DNA from: Thermoanaerobaculales bacterium
GTDB lineage: Bacteria; Acidobacteriota; Thermoanaerobaculia; Thermoanaerobaculales; Sulfomarinibacteraceae
Direction: 5' to 3'
Length of the DNA: 64,000 bases
NCBI GenBank assembly: GCA_035358815.1
Contig: DAOPQC010000009.1
Coordinates: 2,405 to 66,404 of the forward strand
Position numbers and translations under genes: made by a program. Numbering within the stretch: the first letter of the stretch is position 1; every line of letters starts with the position of its first letter. The notes below the pieces were generated by a model. It was not told the origin of the DNA and did no database searches. It saw only the letters and a program-made list of their open reading frames with translations. Shown one piece after another: positions 3,569 to 56,354 of this stretch.

Positions 3569-6307
3569 ATGTCCGAGCGTCTCACCCTGGACGGCAGGGA
3601 GGTTCCTTTCCGACCGGGACAGACGGTCCTGGAGGTAGCCCGGGAGAACCACGTCAGGATCCCAGCGCTGTGCTACCACCGCAAGACCGGTCCCGCGGGT
3701 CGGTGCCGGGTCTGCGTGGTCGAGGTCGAGGGCCAGCGCGGCCTGGCCACCTCCTGCAACCTTGCCGCCAGGGCGGGGATGGTCGTCCACACCGCCTCCG
3801 AGCGTGTCCTCGAGGTGCGGCGTATGGTCGTCAACCTGCTGCTCTCGAGCGGCGAGCACAACTGCCTCGCCTGCGAGCAGAACGGCCACTGCGAGCTCCA
3901 GGACGCGGCGTACCAGCTCGGCATCGAGACGCCGGCCTTCGTCCTGTCGGGGCCCAAGGCCGAGGTGGACGACTCGAGCGAGATGATCGTCTTCGACCAC
4001 CGCAAGTGCATCCAGTGCGGCCGCTGCATCGCCGCCTGCAACCACGTGGTGGTGAACGAGGTTCTGGGCATGGCCGAGCGGGGCTTCGAGGCCAGGGTCG
4101 TGTGCGACCTCGACCAGCCGATGTCCCGGTCGACCTGCGTCCAGTGCGGCGAGTGCGTTCAGCTCTGCCCGGTGGGCGCGATCATCGACAAGAAGGCCGT
4201 CGGACGGGGCCGCGCCTGGGAGCTCGAGCAGGTCAACACCACCTGCCCCTACTGCGGGGTCGGCTGCCAGGTCACCCTGCACGTGGACCGCGGCGCGAAC
4301 CGGATCGTCCGGGTCACCGGCCGGGAGGTCCCGCCGAACGACGGCATGCTGTGCGTGAAGGGGCGCTTCGGGTACGAGTTTCCGTCGAGCCCCAAGCGGC
4401 TCACCCAGCCGATGGTCCGCAAGAACGGGAAGCTCGAGCCGGTGTCTTGGGACGAGGCGCTCGACTACACGGCGCAGCGGATCGGCGACATCGTCGCCAA
4501 GCACGGGCCCGACGTCTTCTCGGCCTTCGGGTCGGGGCGCATCACCAACGAGAACAACTACGCGATCGCGAAGTTCACGAGGGCGGTCATCAAGACCAAC
4601 AACGTCGATCACTGCGCTCGAACGTGACACGCCCCCACTGTCGCCGGTCTGGCGACAAGCTTCGGCTCGGGCGCGATGACCAACAGCATCCAGGAGCTCC
4701 AGGACGCTGACCTGATCTTCGTGATCGGCTCCAACATGACCGAGGCCCACCCGGTCATCTCGTACTACGTCAAGCGGGCCGTCAACAAGGGGGCGACCCT
4801 GATCGTGAACGATCCGCGGCGGACCGACCTCTGCCGGTGGGCAGCCCACCATGTCCAGATCAAGGTCGGCTCGGACATCGCGTACATCAACGGCCTGATC
4901 AACGAGATCTTCAAGAACGGGTGGGCGAACGAGGACTTCATCAGGGAGCACACCGAGAACCCGGACGAGATGCGCGCCTGGGCCGAGTCGTACCCCGTGG
5001 AGCGCGCCAGCGAGATCTGCGGCGTGCCGGTGGCCAGGATGAAGGAGATCGCCCGGCTGCTCGGCACGGCCAAGTCGGTGAGCGTCTGCTACACCCTGGG
5101 CATCACCGAGCACATCTGCGGCACCGACAACGTGAAGACGCTCGCCAACCTGCAGATGGTCCTGGGCAACCTCGGCAAGCACGGCGCCGGGCTGAACCCG
5201 CTGCGTGGGCAGAACAACGTCCAGGGAGCCTGCGACATGGGCGCCCTGCCCAACGTGTTCCACAACTACCAGCCGGTCACCGACGCCAAGGCGATCGAGA
5301 AGATGGAGAAGGACTGGGGCGTCACCGGCCTGTCGAGGACCGCCGGCTACAAGATGCCCACCATGCTCCACAAGGCGCTCGACGGCGGCACCAGGGTGCT
5401 CTACTGCGTTGCGGACAACACGGTCCAGACCGAGCCGCACATGGCGCACACGATCAAGGAGCTGCAGGCGCTGGAGCTCCTGGTGGTCACCGACATCTTC
5501 CCGAACCTGACCACCGCCCTGGCGCACGTGGTCTTTCCGGACTACAGCTGGGGCGAGGAGGAGGGCACGTTCTCGAACACCGAGCGGCGCGTGCAGCGCG
5601 TGCGCCGGGCCCTCACCCCGCCCGAGGGCTGCCGGCCGAACTGGTGGATCCTCCAGGAGCTCGGCAAGCGGCTGGGCTACGACCTCGGGTTTACGTCGGC
5701 GCGGGCGATCTGGGAGGACATGCGCCGGACCGCGACCAGCTACGCCGGCATCACTCACGAGCGCATCGAGGACGTGGGCCTGCAGTGGCCGTGCCCGACG
5801 CTCGAGCACCCCGGGACGGCGTTCCTGCACAAGGACGGCAAGTTCTCCCGCGGCAAAGGGCTGTTCTGCAAGACCGACTGGATCCCACCGGCCGAGGTCG
5901 TGGACGAGGAGTACCCGCTGGTGCTGTCGACCGGCCGCCGGCTCTGGCACTACCACTCCGGCACGCAGACCCGGAACTCGGTCGGGCTCGAGAACCTCTT
6001 CCCCGAGGAGCTCCTGGAGATGCACCCGACCGATGCCTCTCCGCTCGGGATCGCGAGCGGCGATCTGGTCAAGGCGGTGAGCCGCCGCGGCGAGGTCACG
6101 CTGCGCGCCTGGGTCAACGAGCGCGCGGCGCCCGGCCTGTGCTGGATGGCCTTCCACTTCGAAGAGGCGTGCGCCAACGTGCTCACCATCGATGCGTTCG
6201 ATCCGGTCACCGAGACGGCCGAGTACAAGGTGTGCGCGATCCGGGTCGAGAAGGTCCGGGACGGCGAGGCCCCGATGGAGGACCTCCGACGCCAGGCCCG
6301 GCCCTGA
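3569..6307 (+). CDS. fdhA: Formate dehydrogenase catalytic (alpha) subunit, selenocysteine-containing, NuoG-like N-terminus (912 aa with UGA=Sec at 4625-4627)
   Basis: ORFs 3569..4627 and 4676..6307 share one frame (both start = 2 mod 3). The peptide across the TGA reads [28 protein letters not shown], the conserved Sec/Cys active-site context of FdhF/FdnG. N-terminal 2Fe-2S (CYHRK..CRVC) and 4Fe-4S motifs (CIQCGRCIAAC, CVQCGECVQLCP, CPYCGVGC) are present. RBS is gaaaggagg, 8 nt upstream of the ATG. Confidence 0.9.
4625..4656 (+). promoter_or_regulatory. UGA(Sec) codon plus bacterial SECIS-like hairpin
   Basis: TGA at 4625-4627. A perfect 6-bp stem, gtcgcc (4640-4645) / ggcgac (4651-4656), starts 12 nt downstream. 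Its apical loop GGUCU is the same loop sequence as in the E. coli fdhF SECIS. Confidence 0.75.
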
Positions 6308-29020: not shown

Positions 29021-29069
29021 GGGTCCTCCCAAAAGGCGTGGCGCCCCTCAGTGTAGCGCGGCGGCCCCC

Positions 29070-29278
29070 TCGCCCGCACCCGCGTCCGCGCCCGCTTCCG
29101 CGCCCCCGCCGTTGGGATGTCTCTCGTTCCCGTTCCCGTCCCCGTTCCCGTACCCGATGGCCGTTCGGGGTGGATTGAGTTCGTACGTGAAATTTGGAGA
29201 TTGCTGCGACGTCTGGGCGGCGTGCGGCGATCCGGGAACGGGATCGGGGTGGGGCCCTGGACCCTGACCCCGATCCCC
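29070..29278. repeat. Mosaic intergenic repeat locus A (beta C-array, 34-nt alpha module, unique core, G-arm, 11-bp hairpin)
   Basis: CCCGCN-type array at 29070-29110. Alpha module cgttcccgttcccgtccccgttcccgtacccgat at 29125-29158. Inverted partner atccgggaacgggatcggggtgggg at 29230-29254. Perfect hairpin gggatcggggt (29240-29250) / accccgatccc (29267-29277). Confidence 0.85.
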
Positions 29279-32758: not shown

Positions 32759-33045
32759 TCAATTCCGGGCTCAATTCCGGGCTCCAGACCCCGTTTCGAT
32801 TCCGGACTCTGGGCCGGTGCCCGTCCCCGCTTCCGCTTCCCCTTCCGCTTCCGCGCCCGGACGGTGCTCAGGACGCGGGAAAGCTGCGGGGGTCTTCGAC
32901 TTGCCACCGTGCTGGGCGGTTCGCTTCCAATGACCTACCCCCCAGGTCATCGGTGACCTTGTCGGCCCACACGGGCCCTGGGGGTGCTCAGAATGACCAC
33001 GGACAGAGTCGGAAGCGGGCGCGGAAGCGGGCGCGGACGCGGGCC
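32759..33045. repeat. Mosaic intergenic repeat locus B (12-nt tandem, C-arm, 150-nt core with hairpin, G-arm)
   Basis: tcaattccgggc x2 at 32759-32782. C-arm CGCTTCC-type at 32818-32858. Core hairpin atgacct/aggtcat at 32930-32950. G-arm at 33011-33045. Its bases 33017-33043 are the exact reverse complement of 29079-29105. Confidence 0.85.
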
Positions 33046-34500: not shown

Positions 34501-34627
34501 TCGAGGCCTCCTTGACGGTCACTCTACCAGCCCGGATCCGGGCTCACAAGCTCTTGAGAGCTGGTCTCGGCGGGGCGGTGTGGAATCGACGCGCGATGTG
34601 CCCGATGTCACTGGAGGAGAGGATATA

Positions 34628-34768
34628 GGGGATAGGGAATAGGGGATAGGGGAGAGGGGAGAGGGGAGAGGGAACAGGGGATAGGGGAGAGGGAGTAGGG
34701 GAGAGGGCCTAGCTGCCTTGTGGGGTAGCCATCCTGGCTGCCTTGTGGGGTAGCCATCCTGGCTGCCC
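34628..34768. repeat. Mosaic intergenic repeat locus C (12 G-tracts in GGGGA(T/G)A heptamer array + 25-nt tandem repeat)
   Basis: 34628-34707 holds 12 runs of G3-4 separated by 3-4 nt. 34713-34762 is ctgccttgtggggtagccatcctgg x2 (period 25) plus a partial third unit. Confidence 0.9.
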
Positions 34769-36063: not shown

Positions 36064-36125
36064 GGCTCCATGATACCGAGCCGAATGAGGTGCGGAGCGC
36101 CCGTTGTCGATTCTGACCTTCTCTC

Positions 36126-36278
36126 GGGAACGGGAACGGGGACGGGAACGACAGCTGGCCGTTGTGGGGTCGCCATCCTGGCTGCCTTGTGGGGTAGCCA
36201 TCCTGGCTGCCCGGAAGCGGGCGCGGGCGAGGGGGCGGGCGGGGGCCCTACCCCCTATTCCCTACATCCCATCCCCTC
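36126..36278. repeat. Mosaic intergenic repeat locus D (alpha G-array, 25-nt tandem, beta G-array, inverted gamma array)
   Basis: gggaacgggaacggggacgggaac at 36126-36149. 36153-36212 is ~95% identical to 34711-34768. ggaagcgggcgcgggcgagggggcgggcggggg at 36213-36245. C-rich ccctaccccctattccctacatcccatcccctc at 36246-36278. Confidence 0.9.
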
Positions 36279-36281
36279 AAG

Positions 36282-36307
36282 AAAAAGGTGACCGCCCGAA
36301 GGCGGTC
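36282..36307 (-). terminator. Probable Rho-independent terminator of the FecR-like gene
   Basis: The minus strand reads gaccgcc-ttcg-ggcggtc, then acc and TTTTTCTT. It lies 40 nt past the stop at 36347. Confidence 0.55.
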
Positions 36308-38491: not shown

Positions 38492-38564
38492 CGTCCACCT
38501 CCCGTTCCGCCAACAGGCAGTGCAACCGACGTGCCAGCGGGATTTCGGGAACGCGGTGCGTTCA

Positions 38565-38940
38565 CCCGTTTCCGTTTCCGTCTCCGCGCCCCTGCCCGAG
38601 ATGGCGCTCGTGCACCGTGCGGTCTCATCGGGGACGGAGACGGGCACGGAGACGGGCAGGGAGACGGGCAGGGACGCGGGCGGCGGCCATTTGACCTGTC
38701 ACCGGTCACCGATCACTCTCCCGGAGGCGGGAACGGGAACGGGAATCCGGCTTCGCCTTCCGGCTCCGTTCGGCGAACTCCGCCGTGACGAGTCGGCTCC
38801 GCCGTGACAAGCGGGGACGGGCACCCTTCGACTCGCGGCGCTGCGGCGCCGCTCGCTCAGGGCAGGCCCCTCGGGCTCGGAAGCGGAAGCGGGCGGGCGC
38901 CCAATCCCCCAGATCCCAGATCCTGGCCGGGTGGGGGCGG
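38565..38940. repeat. Mosaic intergenic repeat locus E
   Basis: C-arm cccgtttccgtttccgtctccgcgcccctgcccg at 38565-38598. 31-nt core. G-arm (GGAGACGGGCA-type) at 38630-38686. gggaacgggaacgggaat at 38729-38746. ggaagcggaagcgggcgggcgc at 38879-38900. cccagat x2 at 38908-38921. Confidence 0.8.
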
Positions 38941-44153: not shown

Positions 44154-45944
44154 TCAGGGGCGCACGAGCCAGCCGGCGGCGGTCCCGTCCTCGAACCCGC
44201 TGCCGAAGATCAGCGAGCCCGGGCCGGAGGGAGTCGGAGTCGGCGGCGGGGTGGGCGTGGCCACCGGCGTGCTGGTCGGCGTGGCGGTGGGCGGTACGGG
44301 CGTCGTCGTCGGAGTCGGGGTGGGAGTGTGGGTCGGCGGCGGCGGGGTGAGTGTGGGTGTGCTGGTCGGCGGCACCGGCGTCGCGGTGTCAGTGGCGGTG
44401 GCAGTGGGTGTCGGGGTGCTGGTCGGCGGCAGCGGCGTCGCCGTGGCGCTTGGGGTCGGCGTGCGGGTCGGTGTGGCGGTCGCGCTGCTGGTCGAGGTCG
44501 GGGTGCGGGTCGGTGTGGCGGTCGGCGGCACCGGCGTCGCTGTGGGGCTCGGCGTCGCCGTGCGGGTGGGCGTCGCCGTGGCGGTCGCGGTGTTGCTCGG
44601 GGTGCGGGTCGGCGTGGGCGTCGCGGTCCGGGTGGGCGTCGGCGTGCTGGTGCGAGTGGGCGTCGCCGTCGGCCCGCTGGTCACCGACAGCTCGAGCCGG
44701 TAGAGCTGGGCGCTGTCGGTGGCGTCGCCGGCGAGCTCGACGAAGTAGGTTCCCGGCCCGCTGGGCAGTGGCACGCTCGGCAGCGCCTCGGGCAGGCCGG
44801 CGCCGTTGGCGTCCGCGAACGCGAGCTCGGTGGTCCCGTTGACGTCGAGCACCCGCAGCGACAGGTCGTGGATGGCGAGCGAGTCGAACGAGCTCCCCGC
44901 GGTGCAGCTGCCGTTCGGGTTCTGGGGGCCGCTCAAGTAGGTCCAGCCGGTCGGCGTGACGGTGATCGAGAGCGAGGCGCCGCTGCCGACGGTGAGGCTG
45001 TAGTCGTCGTAGTCGGAGTCGTCGTCGACCGACAGGTTGTCGATGGTGAGCAGGCCCGTCGGCGTCCCCAGGGGGTACGCCGTGGACGGGTCGTCGTCGT
45101 GCTCGGCGCCGTCGCCGTAGCCGCGGTTGGCGGCCAGGATGTCGTCGTGCTGGGGCCCGTCGAAGGCGCTCGAGTAGTAGGGCTCCATCAGCTTGGTCTG
45201 GTTGACCGGGCAGACATGCTGCAGCCCGAGACCGTGGCCGTGCTCGTGGGCGACCACGTTGCGCAGCCGCAGCGAGTTGCCGGTGGTCACGGAGTAGAAC
45301 GAGTCGCCGGTGTCGATGACCATGTCCCCGACGTCGGGGTAGAAGTTGTAGCCGAGGATGCCGGAGTTGCCGTCGATGGTATGGCCGCCGAAGCGCACGT
45401 CGCCCCGCACGCCGAGTGATCCCGCCGAGTTGACGAAGGCCGCGCCGTCATCGCTCGGCTGGTAGAGGTAGCTGATGCCGGTCAGCTCGCCCCAGCGATC
45501 CAGCACCTGCTGGAGCAGCGCCAGCCAGGTGGCCTCGTCGCCGTAGATCCCGGTCAGGAAGGCGCGCAGGTTGCTTGGCGAGCTCGGCTCACCGGCGTAG
45601 CCGGGGATCGCGGTGCCGTCGGGGACGACGCTCCAGGTCAGGGTGGTGGGGTCGCCCTGGCCGAGCCCGCTGCCGTTGCTGGCCGTGCTCGACCAGCGGT
45701 TGGAGTCCGGGAACTGGTACTCGCCGAGCGGCGGGGCGGAGAGCGAGTGGGTCACCCGGGCCAGGGCGGCCTTCGCGATCGCCTGCTCGACGTACCACTG
45801 CGGGGTGCCGTCCTTGAAGCACAGCGCCGGCGCGGGCGGGGGGCCCGGCTGGGCCGGCGGGCGGTCCGCTGCGGCAGCGCAGGCGGCCGCGAGGAGCATC
45901 GCGATTCCGAGCGCCGCGGGCGCCCCGGGGCGTGCCGTGCTCAT
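44154..45944 (-). CDS. Secreted metzincin (matrixin/M10-like) zinc protease with PPC-like domain and ~150-aa Pro/Thr linker
   Basis: ATG 45944. Signal peptide ...[10 protein letters not shown]. Zinc site [13 protein letters not shown] (HExxHxxGxxH). Pro/Thr repeats. C-terminal tail [19 protein letters not shown]. Confidence 0.8.
44229..44680 (-). repeat. Intragenic low-complexity Pro/Thr (TPTxT) repeat-coding region
   Basis: Encodes [55 protein letters not shown]... The mirror-frame ORF 44065..44703 (GV-rich) is its artefact. Confidence 0.85.
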
Positions 45945-48046: not shown

Positions 48047-49621
48047 ATGAGTGCGAAGCGTGGGGGCACCAGGAAGAACGCGAAGGCCACGGCGACGGCT
48101 CTCGACAAGCTGGGGATCGGTCCCCTGCTCGGGCTCCAGCCGGTCAATCAGGGCGCGTGCACCGGGAAGTGGATCTCGTGTGCGGGCGGCCAGGAGCTGA
48201 TCTCGGTCAGCCCGGCGGACGGCTCGCCGATCGCCGCTGTGCGGCAGGCCGACGAGGCCGCGTACGAAAAGGTCGTTGCGGAGGCTGTGGCCGCGTTCCC
48301 GGCCTGGCGGATGACGCCGGCACCGGCGCGCGGCGAGGTCGTCCGCGACCTGGGCAACGAGCTCCGCGCGGTCAAGGAGCCGCTCGGCAAGCTGGTGTCG
48401 CTCGAGATGGGGAAGATCCTCTCCGAAGGGCTCGGCGAGGTCCAGGAGATGATCGACATGTGCGACTTCGCGGTCGGGCTGTCGCGCCAGCTCTCCGGTC
48501 CGACGATGGCCTCCGAGCGCCCGCGCCACCGGATGTACGAGCAGTGGCATCCGCTGGGGGTGGTCGGCATCATCACCGCCTTCAACTTCCCGGTGGCGGT
48601 CTGGGCGTGGAACGCGGCGCTGGCCGCGGTGTGCGGCGACACCATGGTCTGGAAGCCGTCGTCCGACACCCCGCTGACCGCGATCGCGGTCCAGAACATC
48701 TGCAACCGGGTGATGGAGCGGCACAATCTCTCCGGGATCTTCAACCTGGTGATCGGCCCCGGCCGCACCGTTGGCGAGCGGATGATCAACGACCGGCGGG
48801 TGCCGCTGGTCTCGTTCACCGGCTCGACCGCGATGGGCCGGCGCGTGTCCCAGGCCACGGCCACCCGCTTCGGGCGCAGCATCCTCGAGCTCGGCGGCAA
48901 CAACGCGATCCTGGTCGAGCCGGACGCCGATCTCGACCTGACGCTGCGCGCCGTCCTGTTCGCCGCGGTCGGCACCGCCGGCCAGCGCTGCACCTCCCTG
49001 CGCCGGCTGTTCCTGCACAAGAAGATCGCGAAGCAGTTCCTGGCCCGTCTGGTCAAGGCCTACGGCAGCATCACGATCGGCAACCCACTCGAGAAGGGCG
49101 TGCTGATGGGTCCGCTGGTCAACGCGGCCGCGGTCGAGGACTACCTCGCGGCACTCGCCACGGCCCGCAAGCAAGGCGGCAAGATCCTGTACGGTGGCGG
49201 CGTGGTCGACCGGCGTGGATTCTTCGTCGAGCCGGCCATCGTCAAGCTCTCGTCGCAGGTCCCGATCGCCCGCGAGGAGACGTTCGCGCCGATCCTCTAC
49301 GTCATGGAGTACGACGACCTCGAGCAGGCGATCGCGGTCCACAACTCGGTCGACCAGGGCCTGTCCTCCGCGGTCTTCACCTCGAGCATGTACTCGGCGG
49401 AGAAGTTCCTCTCCCACGAGGGCTCGGACTGCGGCATCGCCAACGTCAACATCGGCACCTCCGGTGCCGAGATCGGCGGCGCCTTCGGCGGCGAGAAGGA
49501 GACTGGCGGCGGGCGCGAGGCGGGATCGGACGCCTGGAAGGCCTACATGCGGCGCCAGACCTGCACCATCAACTGGAGCAGTCAGCTGCCGCTCGCGCAG
49601 GGCGTGAAGTTCGACGTCTAG
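48047..49621 (+). CDS. Aldehyde dehydrogenase, ALDH7/alpha-aminoadipic (piperideine-6-carboxylate) semialdehyde dehydrogenase-like
   Basis: FTGSTAMGR, ELGGNNA, and catalytic Cys GTAGQRCTS. ALDH7-type C-terminus: NVNIGTSGAEIGGAFGGEKETGGGREAGSDAWKAYMRR. Confidence 0.85.
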   Translation: MSAKRGGTRKNAKATATALDKLGIGPLLGLQPVNQGACTGKWISCAGGQELISVSPADGSPIAAVRQADEAAYEKVVAEAVAAFPAWRMTPAPARGEVVRDLGNELRAVKEPLGKLVSLEMGKILSEGLGEVQEMIDMCDFAVGLSRQLSGPTMASERPRHRMYEQWHPLGVVGIITAFNFPVAVWAWNAALAAVCGDTMVWKPSSDTPLTAIAVQNICNRVMERHNLSGIFNLVIGPGRTVGERMINDRRVPLVSFTGSTAMGRRVSQATATRFGRSILELGGNNAILVEPDADLDLTLRAVLFAAVGTAGQRCTSLRRLFLHKKIAKQFLARLVKAYGSITIGNPLEKGVLMGPLVNAAAVEDYLAALATARKQGGKILYGGGVVDRRGFFVEPAIVKLSSQVPIAREETFAPILYVMEYDDLEQAIAVHNSVDQGLSSAVFTSSMYSAEKFLSHEGSDCGIANVNIGTSGAEIGGAFGGEKETGGGREAGSDAWKAYMRRQTCTINWSSQLPLAQGVKFDV

Positions 49622-49700
49622 GTGTTCGCGCCGCGTTGGCCTCTTCGGAGCACGGCGTAGCCCGCAGTGCTGGCGATCGGCCTCCGCGGCGCGAACACCT
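49620..49700 (+). other. 16-bp perfect inverted repeat (long stem-loop) abutting the ALDH stop codon
   Basis: aggtgttcgcgccgcg (49620-49635) pairs with cgcggcgcgaacacct (49685-49700). 49-nt loop with internal gcac/gtgc helix. No T-run. Confidence 0.7.
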
Positions 49701-49786
49701 CGGGATGCGCTGCGCGCATCCAATTGCGGTGCGGGGCGGAGGCCGGCGTCAAGCACCTCGACAGCGGGCGCGCATCGGGTTTGGTA

Positions 49787-49924
49787 CGTTCCCGTTCCCG
49801 TGCCCGCTCCCGTACCCGATGGCGGATTCCTGCCCACTATTGCGCGGAGCCGTGGGAGCCAAGCCGGTTTCACCTCCGTCCTCTTCTGCAATCGGGAACG
49901 GGGACGGGAACGGGAGCGGGAACG
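49787..49924. repeat. Mosaic intergenic repeat locus F (34-nt alpha module, 70-nt core, inverted 34-nt alpha module)
   Basis: cgttcccgttcccgtgcccgctcccgtacccgat at 49787-49820 is 32/34 identical to 29125-29158. atcgggaacggggacgggaacgggagcgggaacg at 49891-49924. The arms are ~85% complementary. Confidence 0.9.
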
Positions 49925-50033
49925 ATCAGGAGACAGCCGTCGGGATGAACGGTCGGCGCGGCTGTGGGCGACCTCGTTGATCATGCGGTGGCGGCGTCCG
50001 GCGAGTTTTCATTCGTCGACTGAATTGAATAGT

Positions 50034-51386
50034 ATGGGCGGCATGGAAGGCCGCATTCTGATCGTCGATGACGACGCCTCGGTCCGCACCGTGCTGCGCC
50101 GGATCCTGGGCTCTGCCGGGTACAGCGTGCAGGAGGCGGGTGACGCGTTCCAGGCCCTCGACCTGCTCGATGCCCAGCCCCCGGACGCCGCCCTGCTCGA
50201 CCTCAAGATGCCCGGCATGGACGGGCTCGGGCTGATCGCCAACCTGCGCCAGCGCGGCCTCGAGATCCCGGTCGTGGTGCTGACCGGTCACGGCGACGAG
50301 TTCACCTCCCAGCAGGTGCTCGACGCCGGGGCCGCCGCCTACCTCACCAAGCCGCCCGACCGGGCCGACCTCCTGCTCGCGGTGCGCGGCGCGGTCGCCC
50401 AGGGCCGGGTGGCCCGGGAGCTGGCCGAGGCGGAGGAGCCGCCGCCGCTGCTCGGCACGAGTGTCGCCGTCGAGCTGGTCCGGCAGCAGATCGCCAGGGT
50501 CGCGCCGTCCCACGCCACGGTCCTCATCCAGGGCGAGTCGGGGACCGGCAAGGAGCTGGTGGCCCGCCGCCTGCACCACCTCTCGGAGCGGGCCCGGCGG
50601 CCGTTCGTCCGTGTCAACTGCGCGGCGATCCCGAGCGAGCTCATCGAGTCCGAGCTGTTCGGCCACGAGAAGGGATCGTTCACCGGCGCCCACCGCCGGC
50701 AGATCGGCAAGTTCGTCCAGGCCGACAGCGGCACCATCTTCCTCGACGAGGTCGGCGACATGAGCCTGAGCACCCAGGCCAAGGTGCTGCGGGTGCTGCA
50801 GGACGGCGAGGTCGAGCCGGTCGGCGCCGGCCGTCCGTTCCAGGTCGACGTGCGGGTGGTGGCGGCCACCAACAAGGACCTGCCGGCCAACGTCCGCGAG
50901 GCCACCTTCCGCGAGGACCTCTACTACCGGCTGGCGGTGGTGGTGCTGGTGACCCCGCCGCTGCGCGACCACCTGGACGACATTCCGCTCCTGGTCGACC
51001 ACTTCACCGCCCACTACTGCCGCGAGTACAACCGCCGCCCCAAGCGGTGGAGCCCGGCGGCGCTTGAGCAGCTGCGCCGGCACCGCTGGCCGGGGAACGT
51101 CCGCGAGCTGAAGAACGTCGTCGAGCGGGCCGTCATCATGGAGCTCGAGGACACCATCGACCGGGTCGCGATCGCCGGCGCTCCGGGCGCGGCCGCGGGC
51201 GCCGAGAGCCTGCTCGATGCGTCGACGCTGGCCGCGTTCCAGCAGGCGTCCGAGATCGCCTACCTGCGCCACCAGCTCGACCGCCACGGCTGGAACGTCG
51301 CCGCGACGGCACGGGCCATCGACACCCCGCGCTCGAACCTCTACAAGAAGCTCCAGGCGTATGGGATCAGCCGGGAGGACACGTGA
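50034..51386 (+). CDS. NtrC-family sigma-54-dependent response regulator
   Basis: Receiver domain (ILIVDDD...[11 protein letters not shown]). AAA+ domain with GESGTGKE and [16 protein letters not shown]-terminal Fis-type HTH. Start ATG 50034 or 50043. Confidence 0.9.
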
Positions 51387-51967
51387 TCAACTGCATCACC
51401 CTCGCCGATCTGGCGGTCCATGGCGCCCACCAGAAGGGCCACTTTCGCCTCTCCTCCGGGCTCCACTCGTCCGACTACCTGCAGTGCGCCCTCTACCTCG
51501 CCAACCCGGTGCGCGCCGAGCGCGCCGGCCAGGAGCTGGCGCAGTCGATCACCGCGGCGATGGTCGAGCCGGGTGCGATCGTCGCACCAGCCCTCGGCGG
51601 GCTGATCATCGGGCACGAGACCGCGCGAGCGTTCAGGGTGCCGTTCTTCTTCACCGAGCGGGTGGAGGGGAAGATGGCGCTGCGCCGGGGCTTCGGGGTC
51701 GATCCCAAGCAGGCGATCGTGGTCGTCGAGGACGTGGTGACGACCGGCGGCTCGTCGAACGAGGTCATCGACCTGCTCGAGGGCCTCGGCGCCTGCGTCA
51801 TCGGCGTCGCGTCGCTGGTGAACCGCTCGGACGCTGACAACCCCTTCGACCCTCGGCCCTACACCGCCCTGCTGCGGGCCTCGTTCCCGACCTGGAAGCC
51901 CACCGCATGCCCGCTCTGCCGGCAGGGCAGGCCGCTCGTCAAGCCGGGGTCGAGGCCGGTCAAGTAG
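51383..51967 (+). CDS. pyrE: Orotate phosphoribosyltransferase
   Basis: GHFRLSSGLHS and the PRPP loop VVVVEDVVTTGGS. The GTG start overlaps the stop of the upstream regulator (gtga). Confidence 0.85.
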   Translation: MINCITLADLAVHGAHQKGHFRLSSGLHSSDYLQCALYLANPVRAERAGQELAQSITAAMVEPGAIVAPALGGLIIGHETARAFRVPFFFTERVEGKMALRRGFGVDPKQAIVVVEDVVTTGGSSNEVIDLLEGLGACVIGVASLVNRSDADNPFDPRPYTALLRASFPTWKPTACPLCRQGRPLVKPGSRPVK

Positions 51968-51973
51968 CGCTCA

Positions 51974-52410
51974 GGGGATAGCGATGAGGGGATAGGGGCT
52001 AGGGCCCCTGCCCGCCCGCTGCCGGCTGCACGGACGGCTTCGTTCCCGTTCCCGTTCCCGTGCCCGCGCCGATCCGCCTCCGCGCGCGACGTCGTTCCCG
52101 TTCCCGTTCCCGTTCCCGAACCCGCGCCCGCTTCCGCGCCCGGTTCCGAGCGACGTTTCGCTCCCCTTCCCGTTCCCGTCCCCGTTCCCGATCCCGTGTC
52201 CGCTCCCGCTCGTTCGCTCCGTCCTCGAGAGCGCTTCGCGCCGATTCTCTGGAAGCGCTCCCCGAGGGTGCCACCTTTGGCGATTTCGGGTCCTGAGCAA
52301 TTTGTCAGGAGCATCGTCGTCCCGAAATCGCCAAAGATGGCACGCCCGCGGGAGGCGCTTCCCTCGCTCTCTCCTCGTCCCCGGGGAGCGGAAGCGGGTG
52401 CGGGCGCAGC
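51974..52410. repeat. Mosaic intergenic repeat locus G (gamma G-array, three C-rich hexamer arrays, 113-nt imperfect palindrome, beta G-array)
   Basis: Gamma array at 51974-52004. C-arrays at 52041-52070, 52093-52147 and 52164-52212. Palindrome at 52251-52363 with 23-nt arms (52268-52290 / 52321-52343, 1 mismatch) and apical hairpin tcctga/tcagga. gagcggaagcgggtgcgggcgc at ~52385-52410. Confidence 0.9.
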
Positions 52411-52426
52411 CAGGTTCGCCCTGGCC

Positions 52427-52879
52427 TTACGAATCGTCCTTGCGGCCGCGCGTGAAGACCTCCTGCCACGCGGCGACCTCGCTCGACGACAGCTTGGCCT
52501 CGGCGCGGGCCCTCGGCGGCGTGGGCCGAGGGCGCGTGCTCCACTCGGCCAGCGTACGGACAGTGGCCCCGCGTTCGCGGGCGCGTCCCGCGAGGCCGCG
52601 GTCGTCGGTCACCACGACCCACTCACGGGCCCTCCGCCCGGCCGGGATCCTGCTGATGATCACGTCGTCGGCGGAGGCGGCGCCGGAGTGGACGATGGTC
52701 ACCCGGCCCAGCGCCTCCTGGGCCGGCGCGCCGGCGGCCGGCGGACCGTCGAACACCACCACCACCGACATCCGCTCGTGTCGGGTCGCCTCCAGCACCA
52801 GCGCGCGAACGGCCGGGCGCGACCGGGCCGATCGCGGGAGACTGTGGAGGAGGTTGGTGCCGTCGACGAGGAGCGGCAT
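52427..52879 (-). CDS. NYN/YacP-like (PIN-fold) predicted RNA-binding nuclease domain protein
   Basis: ATG 52879 overlaps the upstream stop (ATGA). MPLLVDGTNLLH..., VVVFDG, and DDVIISRI...VVVTDDRGL resemble the YacP/NYN layout. Confidence 0.6.
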   Translation of the reverse strand: MPLLVDGTNLLHSLPRSARSRPAVRALVLEATRHERMSVVVVFDGPPAAGAPAQEALGRVTIVHSGAASADDVIISRIPAGRRAREWVVVTDDRGLAGRARERGATVRTLAEWSTRPRPTPPRARAEAKLSSSEVAAWQEVFTRGRKDDS

Positions 52880-54432
52880 CAGCCGCGCTGCTGCTGGGCG
52901 CGGCGCAGCAGGCGCTCGAGCTCGCGCTTGCCGGCCAGCTCCTTGTACATCTGCTTGGCGCGCGGGTTGTCGGGATCCGCGGCGAGAGCCTTCTCGAGCG
53001 CCTTGCGCTCGCGCTCCTGGTTGCGGCGGCGGCGCCAGAACAGCGCCAGCTCGAGCCACGCCTCGACGTGCTCGGGGTCGACCTCGATGGCGCGGCGCAT
53101 CGCCGCCAGGGCGCGATTGGTCCACAGCGGGTTGCGGAGCAGGAGCTGGGCCAGCTTCACCAGCTCTGTGGGTCGGGGGTCGAGCTTGCAGGCGTGCTCG
53201 AGGAGCTGGATCGCGAGGTAGAACTCGCCCTCGCGGACCAGCTCGTCGGCCCGCTTGAGGTTGGCCTCGACGACGGCGCTGCGCGCGCCGACGTCGGCGG
53301 CGGCTCGCTGGGCCGGCTCGGCGAGCCGCTCGCGCTCCTTCTGCACCTCCTGGAGGATCTTGTCGTAGCGCTCACGGCTTCGCCAGTCGGACAGCACCTG
53401 GTGCGCCTCCGTGGCGCGCTCGCAGATCGCCTCCAGCTCGGCGCCGAGGTCCTTGAGGTGTCGCTCCGAAACACGGGCCGGCGAGTACCGCTCCTTGATC
53501 CGCTGCAGGGCCCGATTCACCTCGTCGCGGTCGGCGCCGGGCCGGAGCCCGAGCGCTCCGTAGTGGTCGACGCGCCGGCCTTCCTCGGCAAGCCGCCGGA
53601 TGCTCTGCCGTTCCTGGCGCTGGATCTCGGCGAGCGTCTCCTCCTTCACCGACGGGGTCGCGGCCGGCTGCTCGCCCGGTGCCTGCGGCCGCGCCGGGGC
53701 GGCACGCCGGGTCGCGTCACCGACCGAGACCACGCCGGCCGCGATCAGGGGGTAGAGGGTGGCGATCGCCTGCTCGTCGGGCAGCGCCGAGACCTGGAAC
53801 AGGTCCGAGATCGTCCGCGTGCCCTCGAGGCGGCTCAGCAGGAAGCCCTCGGTCGGGGTGAGGTTGAAGTCCTGCAGCAGGAGGTCGAACTCGCGGGAGC
53901 GCCACACCGTGCGTTCGAGGGAGCCGAGCGCCGCGAGCTTCGCTCGATGGTCGTCGCAGGCGCGGGCCGCGATCAGGATGATCTGCGCGGTGAACAGGTC
54001 GGGCAGGGTGTCAGGCTGTCCCGAGCCCTCCTCGGCGACGTACTCGTAGAACAGGGCCGGCTCCGCCGCCGCTCTCCGGATGATCGCCAGCGTCAGCTCC
54101 TGGAGCTCGCGCTGCAGCACCGCCGCTTCGAGGCTGCCGCGCGCCACCAGGAGATGGCCGAGTGGCGGGGCCTCCTCCCCGCCCTGCGAGAGCAGCGACA
54201 GGGCGCGGTCGTCCTCGCTGATGATGCCGCGGTCCACAAGCCACATCCCGAGCTTTTCGTCCTCGATGCTCGAGCGGGCCGCCCGGATCTCTCCCTTGAC
54301 GAACATGATCTCGCGCCGCGTCCGACTGGTGGCGACGGCGAGGATTCCGGTTGCGGCCTCTCTGGCCAGCCGCGCGAGGTGGTCCGGCAGCGCCGTGCTC
54401 AGCTCGAGCCGCACCACGGAGTCGCCGCTCAT
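52879..54432 (-). CDS. DUF4388-like N-domain / J-domain (DnaJ-like) / TPR protein
   Basis: ATG 54432. N-terminal GILAV....REIMFVKGEIRAA (DUF4388/PATAN-like). The J-domain-like helix pair DHYGALGLRPGADRDEVNRALQRIKERYSP lacks a canonical HPD (has YSP). C-terminal TPR helices. Confidence 0.65.
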   Translation of the reverse strand: MSGDSVVRLELSTALPDHLARLAREAATGILAVATSRTRREIMFVKGEIRAARSSIEDEKLGMWLVDRGIISEDDRALSLLSQGGEEAPPLGHLLVARGSLEAAVLQRELQELTLAIIRRAAAEPALFYEYVAEEGSGQPDTLPDLFTAQIILIAARACDDHRAKLAALGSLERTVWRSREFDLLLQDFNLTPTEGFLLSRLEGTRTISDLFQVSALPDEQAIATLYPLIAAGVVSVGDATRRAAPARPQAPGEQPAATPSVKEETLAEIQRQERQSIRRLAEEGRRVDHYGALGLRPGADRDEVNRALQRIKERYSPARVSERHLKDLGAELEAICERATEAHQVLSDWRSRERYDKILQEVQKERERLAEPAQRAAADVGARSAVVEANLKRADELVREGEFYLAIQLLEHACKLDPRPTELVKLAQLLLRNPLWTNRALAAMRRAIEVDPEHVEAWLELALFWRRRRNQERERKALEKALAADPDNPRAKQMYKELAGKRELERLLRRAQQQRG

Positions 54433-55684: not shown

Positions 55685-55759
55685 GGGAGGTTAGCTCAGG
55701 GGTAGAGCACCTGCCTTACACGCAGGGAGTCGTGGGTTCAAATCCCCCACCTCCCACCA
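55685..55759 (+). tRNA. tRNA-Val (anticodon TAC)
   Basis: Cloverleaf: acceptor gggaggt/acctccc, D-arm gctcaggggtagagc, anticodon stem cctgc/gcagg with loop ctTACac, T-arm gtggg-ttcaaat-cccac region, encoded CCA. Confidence 0.9.
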
Positions 55760-55780
55760 CCCCTGAGACGGCACGATTGC

Positions 55781-55857
55781 GGGGTCGTAGTTCAGCTGGT
55801 TAGAACGCCGGCCTGTCACGCCGGAGGTCGAGGGTTCGAGTCCCTTCGGCCCCGCCA
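55781..55857 (+). tRNA. tRNA-Asp (anticodon GTC)
   Basis: Acceptor ggggtcg/cggcccc, D-arm gttcagctggttagaac, anticodon stem ccggc/gccgg with loop ctGTCac, T-arm gaggg-ttcgagt-ccctt, discriminator G, encoded CCA. Confidence 0.9.
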
Positions 55858-55872
55858 ACCCAGCCAAACCGA

Positions 55873-55900
55873 GCCGCCCTTCGGGCGGCTTTTCGTTTGT
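55873..55900 (+). terminator. Rho-independent terminator after tRNA-Asp
   Basis: gccgccc-ttc(g)-gggcggc followed by ttttcgtttgt. Confidence 0.75.
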
Positions 55901-56006
55901 CTGGTGGCGGGGCCGAAGGGACTCGGTCACCGCGGAGCCAGCGGGCGGACGTACGCCGCCCACCGCCCTCTCCGGCCCGGCTGACGCCGGGCCTGCGACC
56001 CCCACG
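55886..56006. repeat. 121-nt direct repeat, copy 1 (contains inverted copy of tRNA-Asp 3' end)
   Basis: Base-for-base identical to 56234-56354 (checked by eye over all 121 nt). 55905-55925, tggcggggccgaagggactcg, is the reverse complement of tRNA-Asp 55837-55857. Confidence 0.95.
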
Positions 56007-56130: not shown

Positions 56131-56233
56131 GCGCGCTGTCACGGGCAGCCCGCGTTGCGGCCTGCCGGTTCCAGCCTGCGCAGCTGCCGGCGGTGTCGAG
56201 CCCTTCCCTCGTGACCCCGGCGACCCTGGCGGT

Positions 56234-56354
56234 CGGCTTTTCGTTTGTCTGGTGGCGGGGCCGAAGGGACTCGGTCACCGCGGAGCCAGCGGGCGGACGT
56301 ACGCCGCCCACCGCCCTCTCCGGCCCGGCTGACGCCGGGCCTGCGACCCCCACG
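56234..56354. repeat. 121-nt direct repeat, copy 2
   Basis: Identical to 55886-56006 at an offset of 348 nt. Preceded by the 32-nt block 56201-56232, identical to 56046-56077. Confidence 0.95.

Follow-up and report, generated by a model that had tools for sequence, protein, structure and literature searches.

The palindrome between pyrE and an NYN gene

The window analyzed here, a 64,000-nucleotide (nt) stretch from a Thermoanaerobaculales bacterium (contig DAOPQC010000009.1), contains a pyrE-like gene and a YacP-like NYN-domain gene that converge on a 459-nt gap, within which lie short tandem arrays and a long imperfect palindrome (Table 1). We read this palindrome, at a probability of about 70%, as the core of one copy of a lineage-specific, noncoding, nonautonomous foldback repeat that sits in the center of inverted hexamer arrays and undergoes fast turnover. 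A first-pass annotation, made from the letters of the DNA alone, had considered a bidirectional terminator, a protein-binding site, and a structured RNA; a dispersed repeat family is a reading absent from its options.

Direct reading of the sequence places the two 23-nt inner arms where the first-pass annotation had them, complementary but for one mismatch; such an arm pair is found only once in the window, and none of 100 shuffles gives one. An inverted-repeat search lengthens the arms to 31 nt (52260-52290 and 52321-52351) at 87% complementarity, and the outer helix that had been described is present. For a 161-nt stretch, the folding energy is −86.2 kcal/mol (z = −7.05) on the + strand and −92.6 kcal/mol (z = −7.39) on the − strand, values that none of 200 shuffles equals on either strand. 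Folded as DNA, 52160-52410 reaches −71.3 kcal/mol (z = −6.4), and the region snaps back on itself with the hexamer arrays paired too. The other structural claims of the first-pass annotation hold as well: the cap hairpin is part of the minimum-energy fold, C-rich hexamers (52041-52208) and a G-rich stretch (52384-52404) flank the palindrome, and the gene strands (+ and −) confirm the convergent gap. The cap hairpin is ruled out as a conserved feature, as its register differs among copies of the family introduced below. The proposed alternative helix survives in part: GAGCGCTTC (52229-52237) is the exact complement of GAAGCGCTC (52252-52260), but we saw no evidence of switch behavior for this 9-nt pairing, which mostly arises because the self-complementary hexamer AGCGCT is present in two copies.

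That the palindrome arose by chance, or is a purely local structure without relatives, is exceedingly improbable and refuted by two findings: 0 of 200 shuffles fold as well, and homologous palindromes, the absence of which the first-pass annotation had named among the findings that would refute it, exist in the hundreds. Because they do, the palindrome is real and nonrandom.

Table 1. Features of the pyrE-NYN region, with positions in the window
Feature	Position	Strand	Basis or remark
pyrE-like orotate phosphoribosyltransferase gene	51383-51967	+	Pfam Pribosyltran; source names 'orotate phosphoribosyltransferase [Thermoanaerobaculales bacterium]'; context, outside the repeat
G-rich heptamer-like module (GGGGATA-type), then CCCCTGCCCGCCCGC	51968-52021	+	Homologous to the short pyrE-NYN gap of L228
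Three C-rich hexamer arrays (CCCGTT-type) with short spacers between them	52041-52204	+	Repeat searches
Left flank of the conserved unit, CCCGCTCGTTCGCTCCGTCCTCGAGAGCGCTTCGCGCCGATTCTCTGGAAGCGCTCCCCGAGG, with both AGCGCT motifs	52205-52267	+	Alignments of 88 and 76 copies
Left inner arm, GTGCCACCTTTGGCGATTTCGGG	52268-52290	+	Inverted-repeat search; copy alignment
30-nt loop, more variable than any other part of the family	52291-52320	+	Copy alignment
Cap hairpin TCCTGA/TCAGGA, in its register specific to the window copy	52291-52310	+	Fold
Right inner arm, CCCGAAATCGCCAAAGATGGCAC, bearing the family-conserved A of the C·A mismatch	52321-52343	+	Alignments
Right flank of the unit, GCCCGCGGGAGGCGCTTCCCTCGCTCTCTCCTCGTCCCCG, with the CG bulge that is conserved in the family	52344-52383	+	Alignments
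G-rich hexamer array, GGGAGCGGAAGCGGGTGCGGG, at the right end of the unit; complement of the left arrays	52384-52404	+	BLAST ends; pairs in the DNA fold
Outer flank sequences of the unit, GCGCTCCCCGAGG ... CACGCCCGCAGGACGC
Short hairpin GCCAGG-TTCGC-CCTGGC directly after the NYN stop codon, outside the family unit	52405-52426		Sequence reading
YacP-like NYN-domain protein gene, 150 amino acids as called in related contigs	52427-52879	−	Context, outside the repeat

A dispersed family of foldback repeats

A 20-mer of the arm, used to scan prokaryotic genomes at one per species, matched 97 genome blocks, 93 of which belong to three Holophagae metagenome-assembled genomes (MAGs; FeB_10, MFD00032.bin.2.196, and MFD00709.bin.2.175). 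One further block (L070, CAVSYN010000005.1, labeled as an uncultured Bacteroidales MAG) is a contig of 70.6% GC that contains the repeat in full and probably derives from an acidobacterium, having been misbinned; the other three are chance matches in low-GC or unrelated genomes. The 20-mer also occurs in at least 118 metagenome stretches. In the genome blocks, it is usually present as an inverted pair 50 to 51 nt apart, the same spacing as in the window, and nearly all copies have their inverted arms at this distance. In viral contigs, the 20-mer had no match and a 15-mer scan gave single chance matches only, so we dropped a phage origin.

Copies from the Holophagae MAGs and metagenomes are 82 to 87% identical to the window copy over about 52160-52405, and the BLAST matches of the Holophagae copies begin at 52155-52205, with ends clustering at 52395-52409. 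Alignments of 88 and 76 copies delimit a conserved unit of ~200 nt (52205-52404 in the window), or ~245 nt when the hexamer arrays are included, the last of the C-rich arrays (about 52160-52204) being the left array of the unit. Each unit is laid out as a C-rich (CCCGNN)n array, a left flank, a near-invariant arm, a variable 30-nt loop, a complementary arm carrying a fixed C·A mismatch and a CG bulge, a right flank, and a G-rich (NNCGGG)n array, with the bracketing arrays variable in length; heptamer modules like that at 51968-52021 border other copies of the repeat. A profile of 76 copies finds exactly one copy in the window (nhmmer score of 194.9 over 52206-52402) and 233 strong copies in the 1.3 Mb of DNA fetched from the three Holophagae MAGs and many metagenomes, a sample that is partly biased with respect to the arms in that loci were fetched by the exact arm 20-mer.

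The family is therefore dispersed, in hundreds of copies, through the intergenic DNA of Thermoanaerobaculales/"Holophagae"-type Acidobacteriota and is restricted to this lineage. In a tblastx comparison of the window with the Holophagae loci, the repeat dominates the matches, and no informative orthologues emerged; we take the window organism and the Holophagae MAGs as one lineage because they have other intergenic modules in common (tandem repeats of 25 nt, a 49-nt module, and arrays of heptamers and hexamers). A description of the repeat was not found in the searchable literature on Holophagae, Acidobacteria, or Thermoanaerobaculia repeats, and the family is apparently undescribed so far.

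Turnover at orthologous sites

Copies of the repeat come and go between closely related genomes. The nearest relative found (L228, with a 90% identical pyrE) has a pyrE-NYN gap of only 20 nt, versus the 459 nt of the window, and the window copy sits in DNA that this relative lacks. The NYN open reading frame (ORF) of L228 is six codons longer and runs through a short hexamer array and (GGGGTTA)2 (L228:2930-3000); as such, array DNA can become coding at the 3′ end of a gene. In more distant relatives, the gap is occupied by other short tandem arrays (L229:3586-3800, L230:3583-3660, and L231:3586-3660 and 4380-4450). The repeating units of these arrays are TTCCGAA, GTTGAAC/G, and GGAACAA, and inverted-pair CCCCGCCCGCCC-type motifs bound them. 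Relatives keep the gene order (sigma-54 regulator, pyrE, NYN on the − strand, and a PatA_N/TPR gene), and we reject a link between the repeat and the adjacent NYN nuclease, since synteny of the gene pair does not depend on whether the repeat is there.

The two best-sampled MAGs are 90 to 96% identical in flanking DNA, and, at the 17 orthologous sites that could be tested between two MAGs, the element is common to both in 12 and missing from the partner in 5. L099 and L063 differ cleanly by the presence or absence of 245 nt next to a hexamer stretch that was already there, and the junction shows nothing more than CGCG microhomology. At three other pairs of sites (L079/L043, L068/L285, and L337/L094), the inverted hexamer arrays are kept in both genomes and the core differs, being a 200-nt unit in one genome and a short, unrelated sequence in the other; here, cores have been swapped between retained arrays, and the unit occupies the center of a pre-existing inverted array pair. 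One orthologous locus contains, depending on the genome, 25-nt repeats alone, a single copy with the common arms (family 1), or two tandem copies of an arm variant that we term family 2. Overall, orthologous intergenic regions differ in length by −343 to +429 nt.

Insertion polymorphism extends to a further level of nesting. In about 14% of copies, a second highly structured, noncoding element of ~100 to 140 nt (...CGCGGCCGGCGGCCGCGGTGACCAGCCGTCACCAGCGGGTGGCC...) is inserted just beyond the left arm, always at the same position. Its presence differs between the orthologous L024 and L050 (L050:2576-2674), where AGGT/ACCT lie on both sides, and the element is also found in L011, L018, L021, L025, L046, L072, L074, L078, L082, L087, and L102. 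A similar sequence stands alone in the pyrE-NYN region of a relative (L231:4200-4270).

Conservation and paired changes

About 60 nt of arm and outer-arm sequence are 96 to 100% conserved among copies, compared with 64% identity in the loop (in copies not ascertained through their arms) and 81 to 89% in the flanks. The near-invariant parts include two outer-arm segments, GCGCTCCCCGAGG in the left half and GATGGCACGCCCGCAGGACGC in the right, that are not covered by the 20-mer with which loci were fetched. The C·A mismatch recurs in 144 of 156 copies, and the CG bulge is conserved family-wide: the mismatch and the extra CG of the right arm are not local decay, and the decay of a once-perfect palindrome in the window is ruled out. 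In L101, the loop is inverted relative to the flanks, the outcome expected from recombination between arms. Family 2 (GCCACCGCTGGCACTTTCGGG in the left half, CCGAAAGTGTCACCAGTGGC in the right) has the outer flanks of family 1 and differs in three to four base pairs, both partners of each pair being altered; it occurs as tandem dimers.

This pattern raises the question of whether the repeats are sequence-specific protein-binding sites kept by selection, that is, a host-beneficial genomic signal for a nucleoid-organizing protein, a recombinase, or a regulator, with the near-invariant arms and their fixed mismatch and bulge as a putative recognition surface. Both the excess conservation of the arms over the loop and flanks and the family-wide retention of an asymmetric mismatch and bulge would suit such a role, and conserved bulges and mismatches are typical of protein-recognized hairpins, including those of REP/RAYT systems, attC sites, and IS200/IS605 ends. 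We nonetheless consider binding-site selection unlikely. The same conservation is expected from a mobilizing enzyme, from young copies, or from homogenization by gene conversion, and the conservation of the arms derives partly from the way in which loci were fetched; moreover, a second arm variant exists within the same flanks, presence or absence varies between near-identical genomes, and no candidate protein was found.

Paired changes in the arms bear on another possibility, namely, that the family is a multicopy gene for a structured noncoding RNA, a hairpin of ~110 to 200 nt that would act in regulation or as a guide for some enzyme. Besides the strong fold (z of about −7), such an RNA would account for the double changes that keep Watson-Crick pairing (20 cells at four to five arm positions in 156 copies, as well as in family 2) and for the one loop pair that switches between A-T and G-C among copies. 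These changes are only limited evidence for selection on the helix since, in an inverted repeat, either arm can serve as the template for correcting its partner. In a copy from another strain of the window's species (L002:3578-4051), three clustered differences from window positions 52330-52352 (A>G, the loss of CG, and G>T) all bring the right arm nearer to perfect pairing with the left arm, as templated correction of a quasipalindrome would do; with the concerted G>A/C>T change in L033, this offers another explanation for the pairing-preserving changes. A covariation analysis of homologues, recommended in the first-pass annotation, found its homologous copies but no usable covariation: RNAalifold recovered only the inner arms from 76 copies, these being too invariant for covariation testing, and mutual information between alignment columns mostly mirrors subfamilies. 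The noncanonical pairs favor neither strand consistently (C·A becomes G·U on the − strand, and the G·T of family 2 favors the + strand), which argues against a strand-specific RNA. Copies also occur in either orientation relative to genes, there was no Rfam match at an E value of ≤1 on either strand of 49000-54000, and a search for sigma-70 promoter-like sites met no promoter consensus. A structured RNA, although put forward in the first-pass annotation, is thus very unlikely.

Relation to transcription

We inferred gene strands around copies from the GC3 phase instead of from annotation because two simple ORF-based gene finders missed known genes. By this measure, 29 of 96 copies lie in convergent gaps, 18 in divergent gaps, and 49 in tandem gaps, a distribution that does not differ from 25/25/50. 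The left side of the repeat points toward the 3′ end of a gene in 61 of the 96 copies (p = 0.01), which hints at an orientation-dependent effect on transcripts.

Canonical terminators composed of a hairpin and a T-run exist in this lineage, both in the window, after tRNA-Asp, and in L038, where two of them enclose the element, which is thus not needed there as a terminator. The hairpin of the window copy continues into G-rich hexamers instead of a T-run, and no terminator-like sites were detected in 51800-52600; the first-pass annotation had also noted the missing T-run. By the features tested, namely, the missing T-run, the L038 context, and a chance-like distribution among gaps, in which divergent gaps are as frequent as expected by chance, a dedicated terminator and, with it, the bidirectional terminator originally envisaged are not supported. 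Most likely, the palindrome was not built as a terminator or RNA switch for the pyrE/NYN pair.

A less specialized role would be that of an exapted bidirectional transcription barrier that stops read-through between neighboring genes without a U-tract. In either direction, the order would be a C-rich, G-poor array (possibly loading Rho), a pause at the long hairpin, and a G-rich array that pairs back or forms a quadruplex. The structure is very stable on both strands, the succession of C-rich array, hairpin, and G-rich array is symmetric in either reading direction, the window copy lies in a convergent gap, and the bias of the left side toward gene 3′ ends also agrees with a barrier. Set against these are the lack of a T-run or intrinsic-terminator consensus, the absence of enrichment in convergent gaps, the 18 copies in divergent gaps, and the superfluity of the L038 copy between its two terminators. 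The window itself possesses a canonical terminator after tRNA-Asp, the nearest relative copes with a 20-nt gap, and Rho loading is something that we only infer. We regard an exapted barrier as unlikely; under the foldback-repeat reading, the hairpin at pyrE/NYN may incidentally hinder read-through, as a side effect and not as the reason for its presence.

Comparison with known repeats

REPINs are inverted doublets of REP sequences mobilized by RAYT tyrosine transposases (Bertels & Rainey; PMC3337134, PMC3733652). Like REPINs, the foldback repeat is extragenic and noncoding, numbers in the hundreds of copies, has two conserved inverted arms around a more variable spacer such that the whole forms one long hairpin, and displays fixed mismatches and coexisting arm variants. 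It departs from REPINs in that its 23- to 31-nt arms form only a weak 4-bp GCCA/TGGC stem and not a GC-rich REP hairpin with a GTAG or CGTC tag (GTAG is missing from the consensus, and a CGTCG at the 3′ end of the loop is variable, appearing as CGCCG or CGTGG). In addition, it exceeds a REPIN in size and has hexamer arrays as termini, the fetched loci showed no RAYT/TIRYT gene with the arms on its sides, and divergent gaps are not avoided.

Miniature inverted-repeat transposable elements (MITEs) that form long hairpins in bacteria include ERIC/IRU, Correia/NEMIS, and RUP (summarized in PMC3733652 and PMC3184786). The foldback repeat resembles them in a size within the range of 70 to 300 bp, lack of coding capacity, intergenic and multicopy occurrence, whole-length imperfect palindrome, and insertion polymorphism between relatives. 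Unlike MITEs, it lacks terminal inverted repeats that are clearly delimited and accompanied by a fixed-length target-site duplication, its termini being tandem hexamers of variable length, and its filled/empty pairs show core replacement between retained arrays and, at one junction, CGCG microhomology. By the features tested (no duplication-bounded termini, no tagged REP hairpin, and no ORF at the arms), it is neither a classical MITE nor a REPIN. Y1 transposases with associated inverted-repeat families have been described in other Acidobacteria (Di Nocera et al.; PMC3733652), which provides a lead, not a match.

The repeat belongs among the bacterial interspersed palindromic or mosaic repeats, within which its tandem-hexamer termini, array-center occupancy, and Russian-doll nesting are unusual. 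In the BIMEs of Escherichia coli and the mosaic elements of Neisseria (NIMEs), short repeats bracket interchangeable cores, as when dRS3 repeats flank RS cores. As in these mosaics, intergenic regions here are assembled from several nested or alternating modules (heptamer arrays, hexamer arrays, 25-nt repeats, the 49-nt module, the nested ~100-nt element, and the palindromic core, co-occurring in varying order) and are hot spots of exchange between strains. The likeness is without sequence relation: the brackets are inverted tandem hexamer (and outer heptamer) arrays instead of 20-bp dRS3 or REP units, and the host is an acidobacterium.

Two other comparisons are analogies. Eukaryotic Foldback (FB) transposons have long inverted termini made of short tandem repeats in variable number, with most copies lacking a gene, and the entire element, like ours, snaps back into a hairpin; they belong to another domain of life and are kilobases long, versus 0.25 kb here, and there is no evidence of a shared mechanism. 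IS1397 and ISKpn1 insert into the loops of REP/BIME palindromes, encode a transposase, and generate duplications. Insertion into the center of a pre-existing palindrome parallels both the array-center occupancy of the unit and the second element at its fixed position, but both inserts in this case are noncoding and have no known enzyme. An integron attC site was rejected as well: attC sites have R″/R′ core sites (RYYYAAC ... GTTRRRY) and mark the boundaries of cassettes arrayed beside an integrase, whereas copies of the repeat are scattered over megabase contigs instead of forming one array, and the consensus, by inspection and without a search for the integrase, has no GTTRRRY core.

Other intergenic modules in the window

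Several other gaps in the window have the same arrangement of a C-rich array, a core, and an inverted G-rich array (29067-29250, 32827-33044, 38560-38681, 38723-38746 with 38870-38900, and 49787-49924). The cores of these gaps are unique in the DNA sampled, with those at 49.8 and 29.1 kb sharing the start GTACCCGATGGC. The gene block at 34.8 to 36.1 kb is flanked by (GGGGATA/GGGGAGA)n heptamers plus 25-nt repeats (TTGTGGGGTAGCCATCCTGGCTGCC) at 34616-34767 and 36125-36290, the heptamers at 36245-36290 being C-rich and mirrored. The Holophagae MAGs contain GCAGGCTGGAAGCCTGCGCTACAAG, a 25-nt repeat related to the one in the window. The 49-nt palindromic module CCCTTCGACTCGCGGCGCTGCGGCGCCGCTCGCTCAGGGCAGGC (38810-38860) recurs in 28 fetched loci, sometimes beside the foldback element, and the motif CGCCGTGACAAG/CGCCGTGACGAG is recurrent too. 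A short, perfect, REP-like palindrome, GGATGCGCnsnGCGCATCC (49697-49722), is present in 26 of 349 fetched loci (including L017, L028, L044, L057, L059, and L101).

Further structures lie elsewhere in the window. At 49620-49700, directly after the stop codon of an aldehyde dehydrogenase gene, is a 38-nt imperfect inverted repeat (76% complementary, with a 5-nt loop) that is partly conserved in L251, L253, and L311, and 44239-44671 contains dense tandem repeats with periods of 12, 18, 24, 42, 57, and 99 nt. The region 55685-55980 encodes tRNA-Val and tRNA-Asp, followed by the canonical hairpin-plus-T-run terminator GCCGCCCTTCGGGCGGCTTTTCGTTTG, after which comes a perfect inverted copy of the 3′ end of tRNA-Asp (55905-55925). 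A 99-nt direct repeat places 55882-55980 again at 56230-56328; together with the inverted tRNA copy, it could be the trace of an integration site.

Spread and persistence of the repeat

The repeat is most likely selfish or recombining repeat DNA, which would persist mainly as a selfish or neutral component of the genome. It may have spread by either of two routes. In the first, a trans-acting enzyme would read the invariant asymmetric arms or the hairpin, as in REPINs and MITEs. In the second, the hexamer arrays and conserved flanks would serve as portable homology for ectopic recombination or gene conversion, a route that would explain why duplications and transposase-bearing copies are missing, why array lengths vary, and why cores are swapped. 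Both routes are ones that we infer.

Several observations weigh against a mobile or selfish repeat. No clear target-site duplication was seen at filled/empty junctions, and no ORF lies between or beside the arms in about 230 fetched copies. Among the fetched loci, there was no autonomous or REPtron-like copy with arms split by an ORF, and those fetched through the arm sequence held no related insertion sequence with the same ends. Searching the 1.3 Mb of fetched DNA by tblastn with approximate IS200 TnpA and E. coli RAYT probes, which is a weak test, gave a best E value of 0.36, at an ORF with no Pfam domain, and no mobilizing enzyme was identified in this DNA. The window's own species has one visible copy, which gives no sign of activity in that genome. 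Finally, the strong conservation of ~60 nt of the arms could reflect selection for a host function, such as protein binding, and the orientation bias among the 96 copies hints at an effect on transcripts.

A more far-reaching and speculative proposal, to which we assign a low likelihood, is that the palindromic cores belong to a transposase-free cassette-exchange system in which inverted arrays are standing landing pads in intergenic DNA. The pads would consist of CCCGNN hexamers on the inside and GGGGNTA heptamers on the outside, both potential formers of i-motifs or G-quadruplexes, and cores would be moved or swapped between pads by array recombination or by a hairpin-specific enzyme, yielding nested, Russian-doll palindromes. 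If true, this would represent a mode of repeat propagation and intergenic organization not described in bacteria.

Implications

What began as an isolated palindrome is now a family for which a consensus, boundaries, subfamilies, and a host range have been defined. Such repeats have practical consequences for genome reconstruction: they break short-read assemblies (many copies are at contig ends), contigs bearing them can be mis-binned, as in the case of L070, and they can inflate ORF calls, as when the NYN ORF of L228 extends into an array. The hosts are poorly known, uncultured Acidobacteriota that are common in sludge, wetland, and sediment metagenomes, and, in these organisms, the family provides a tractable case for studying how nonautonomous palindromic repeats spread and whether arrays of G/C tracts guide recombination.

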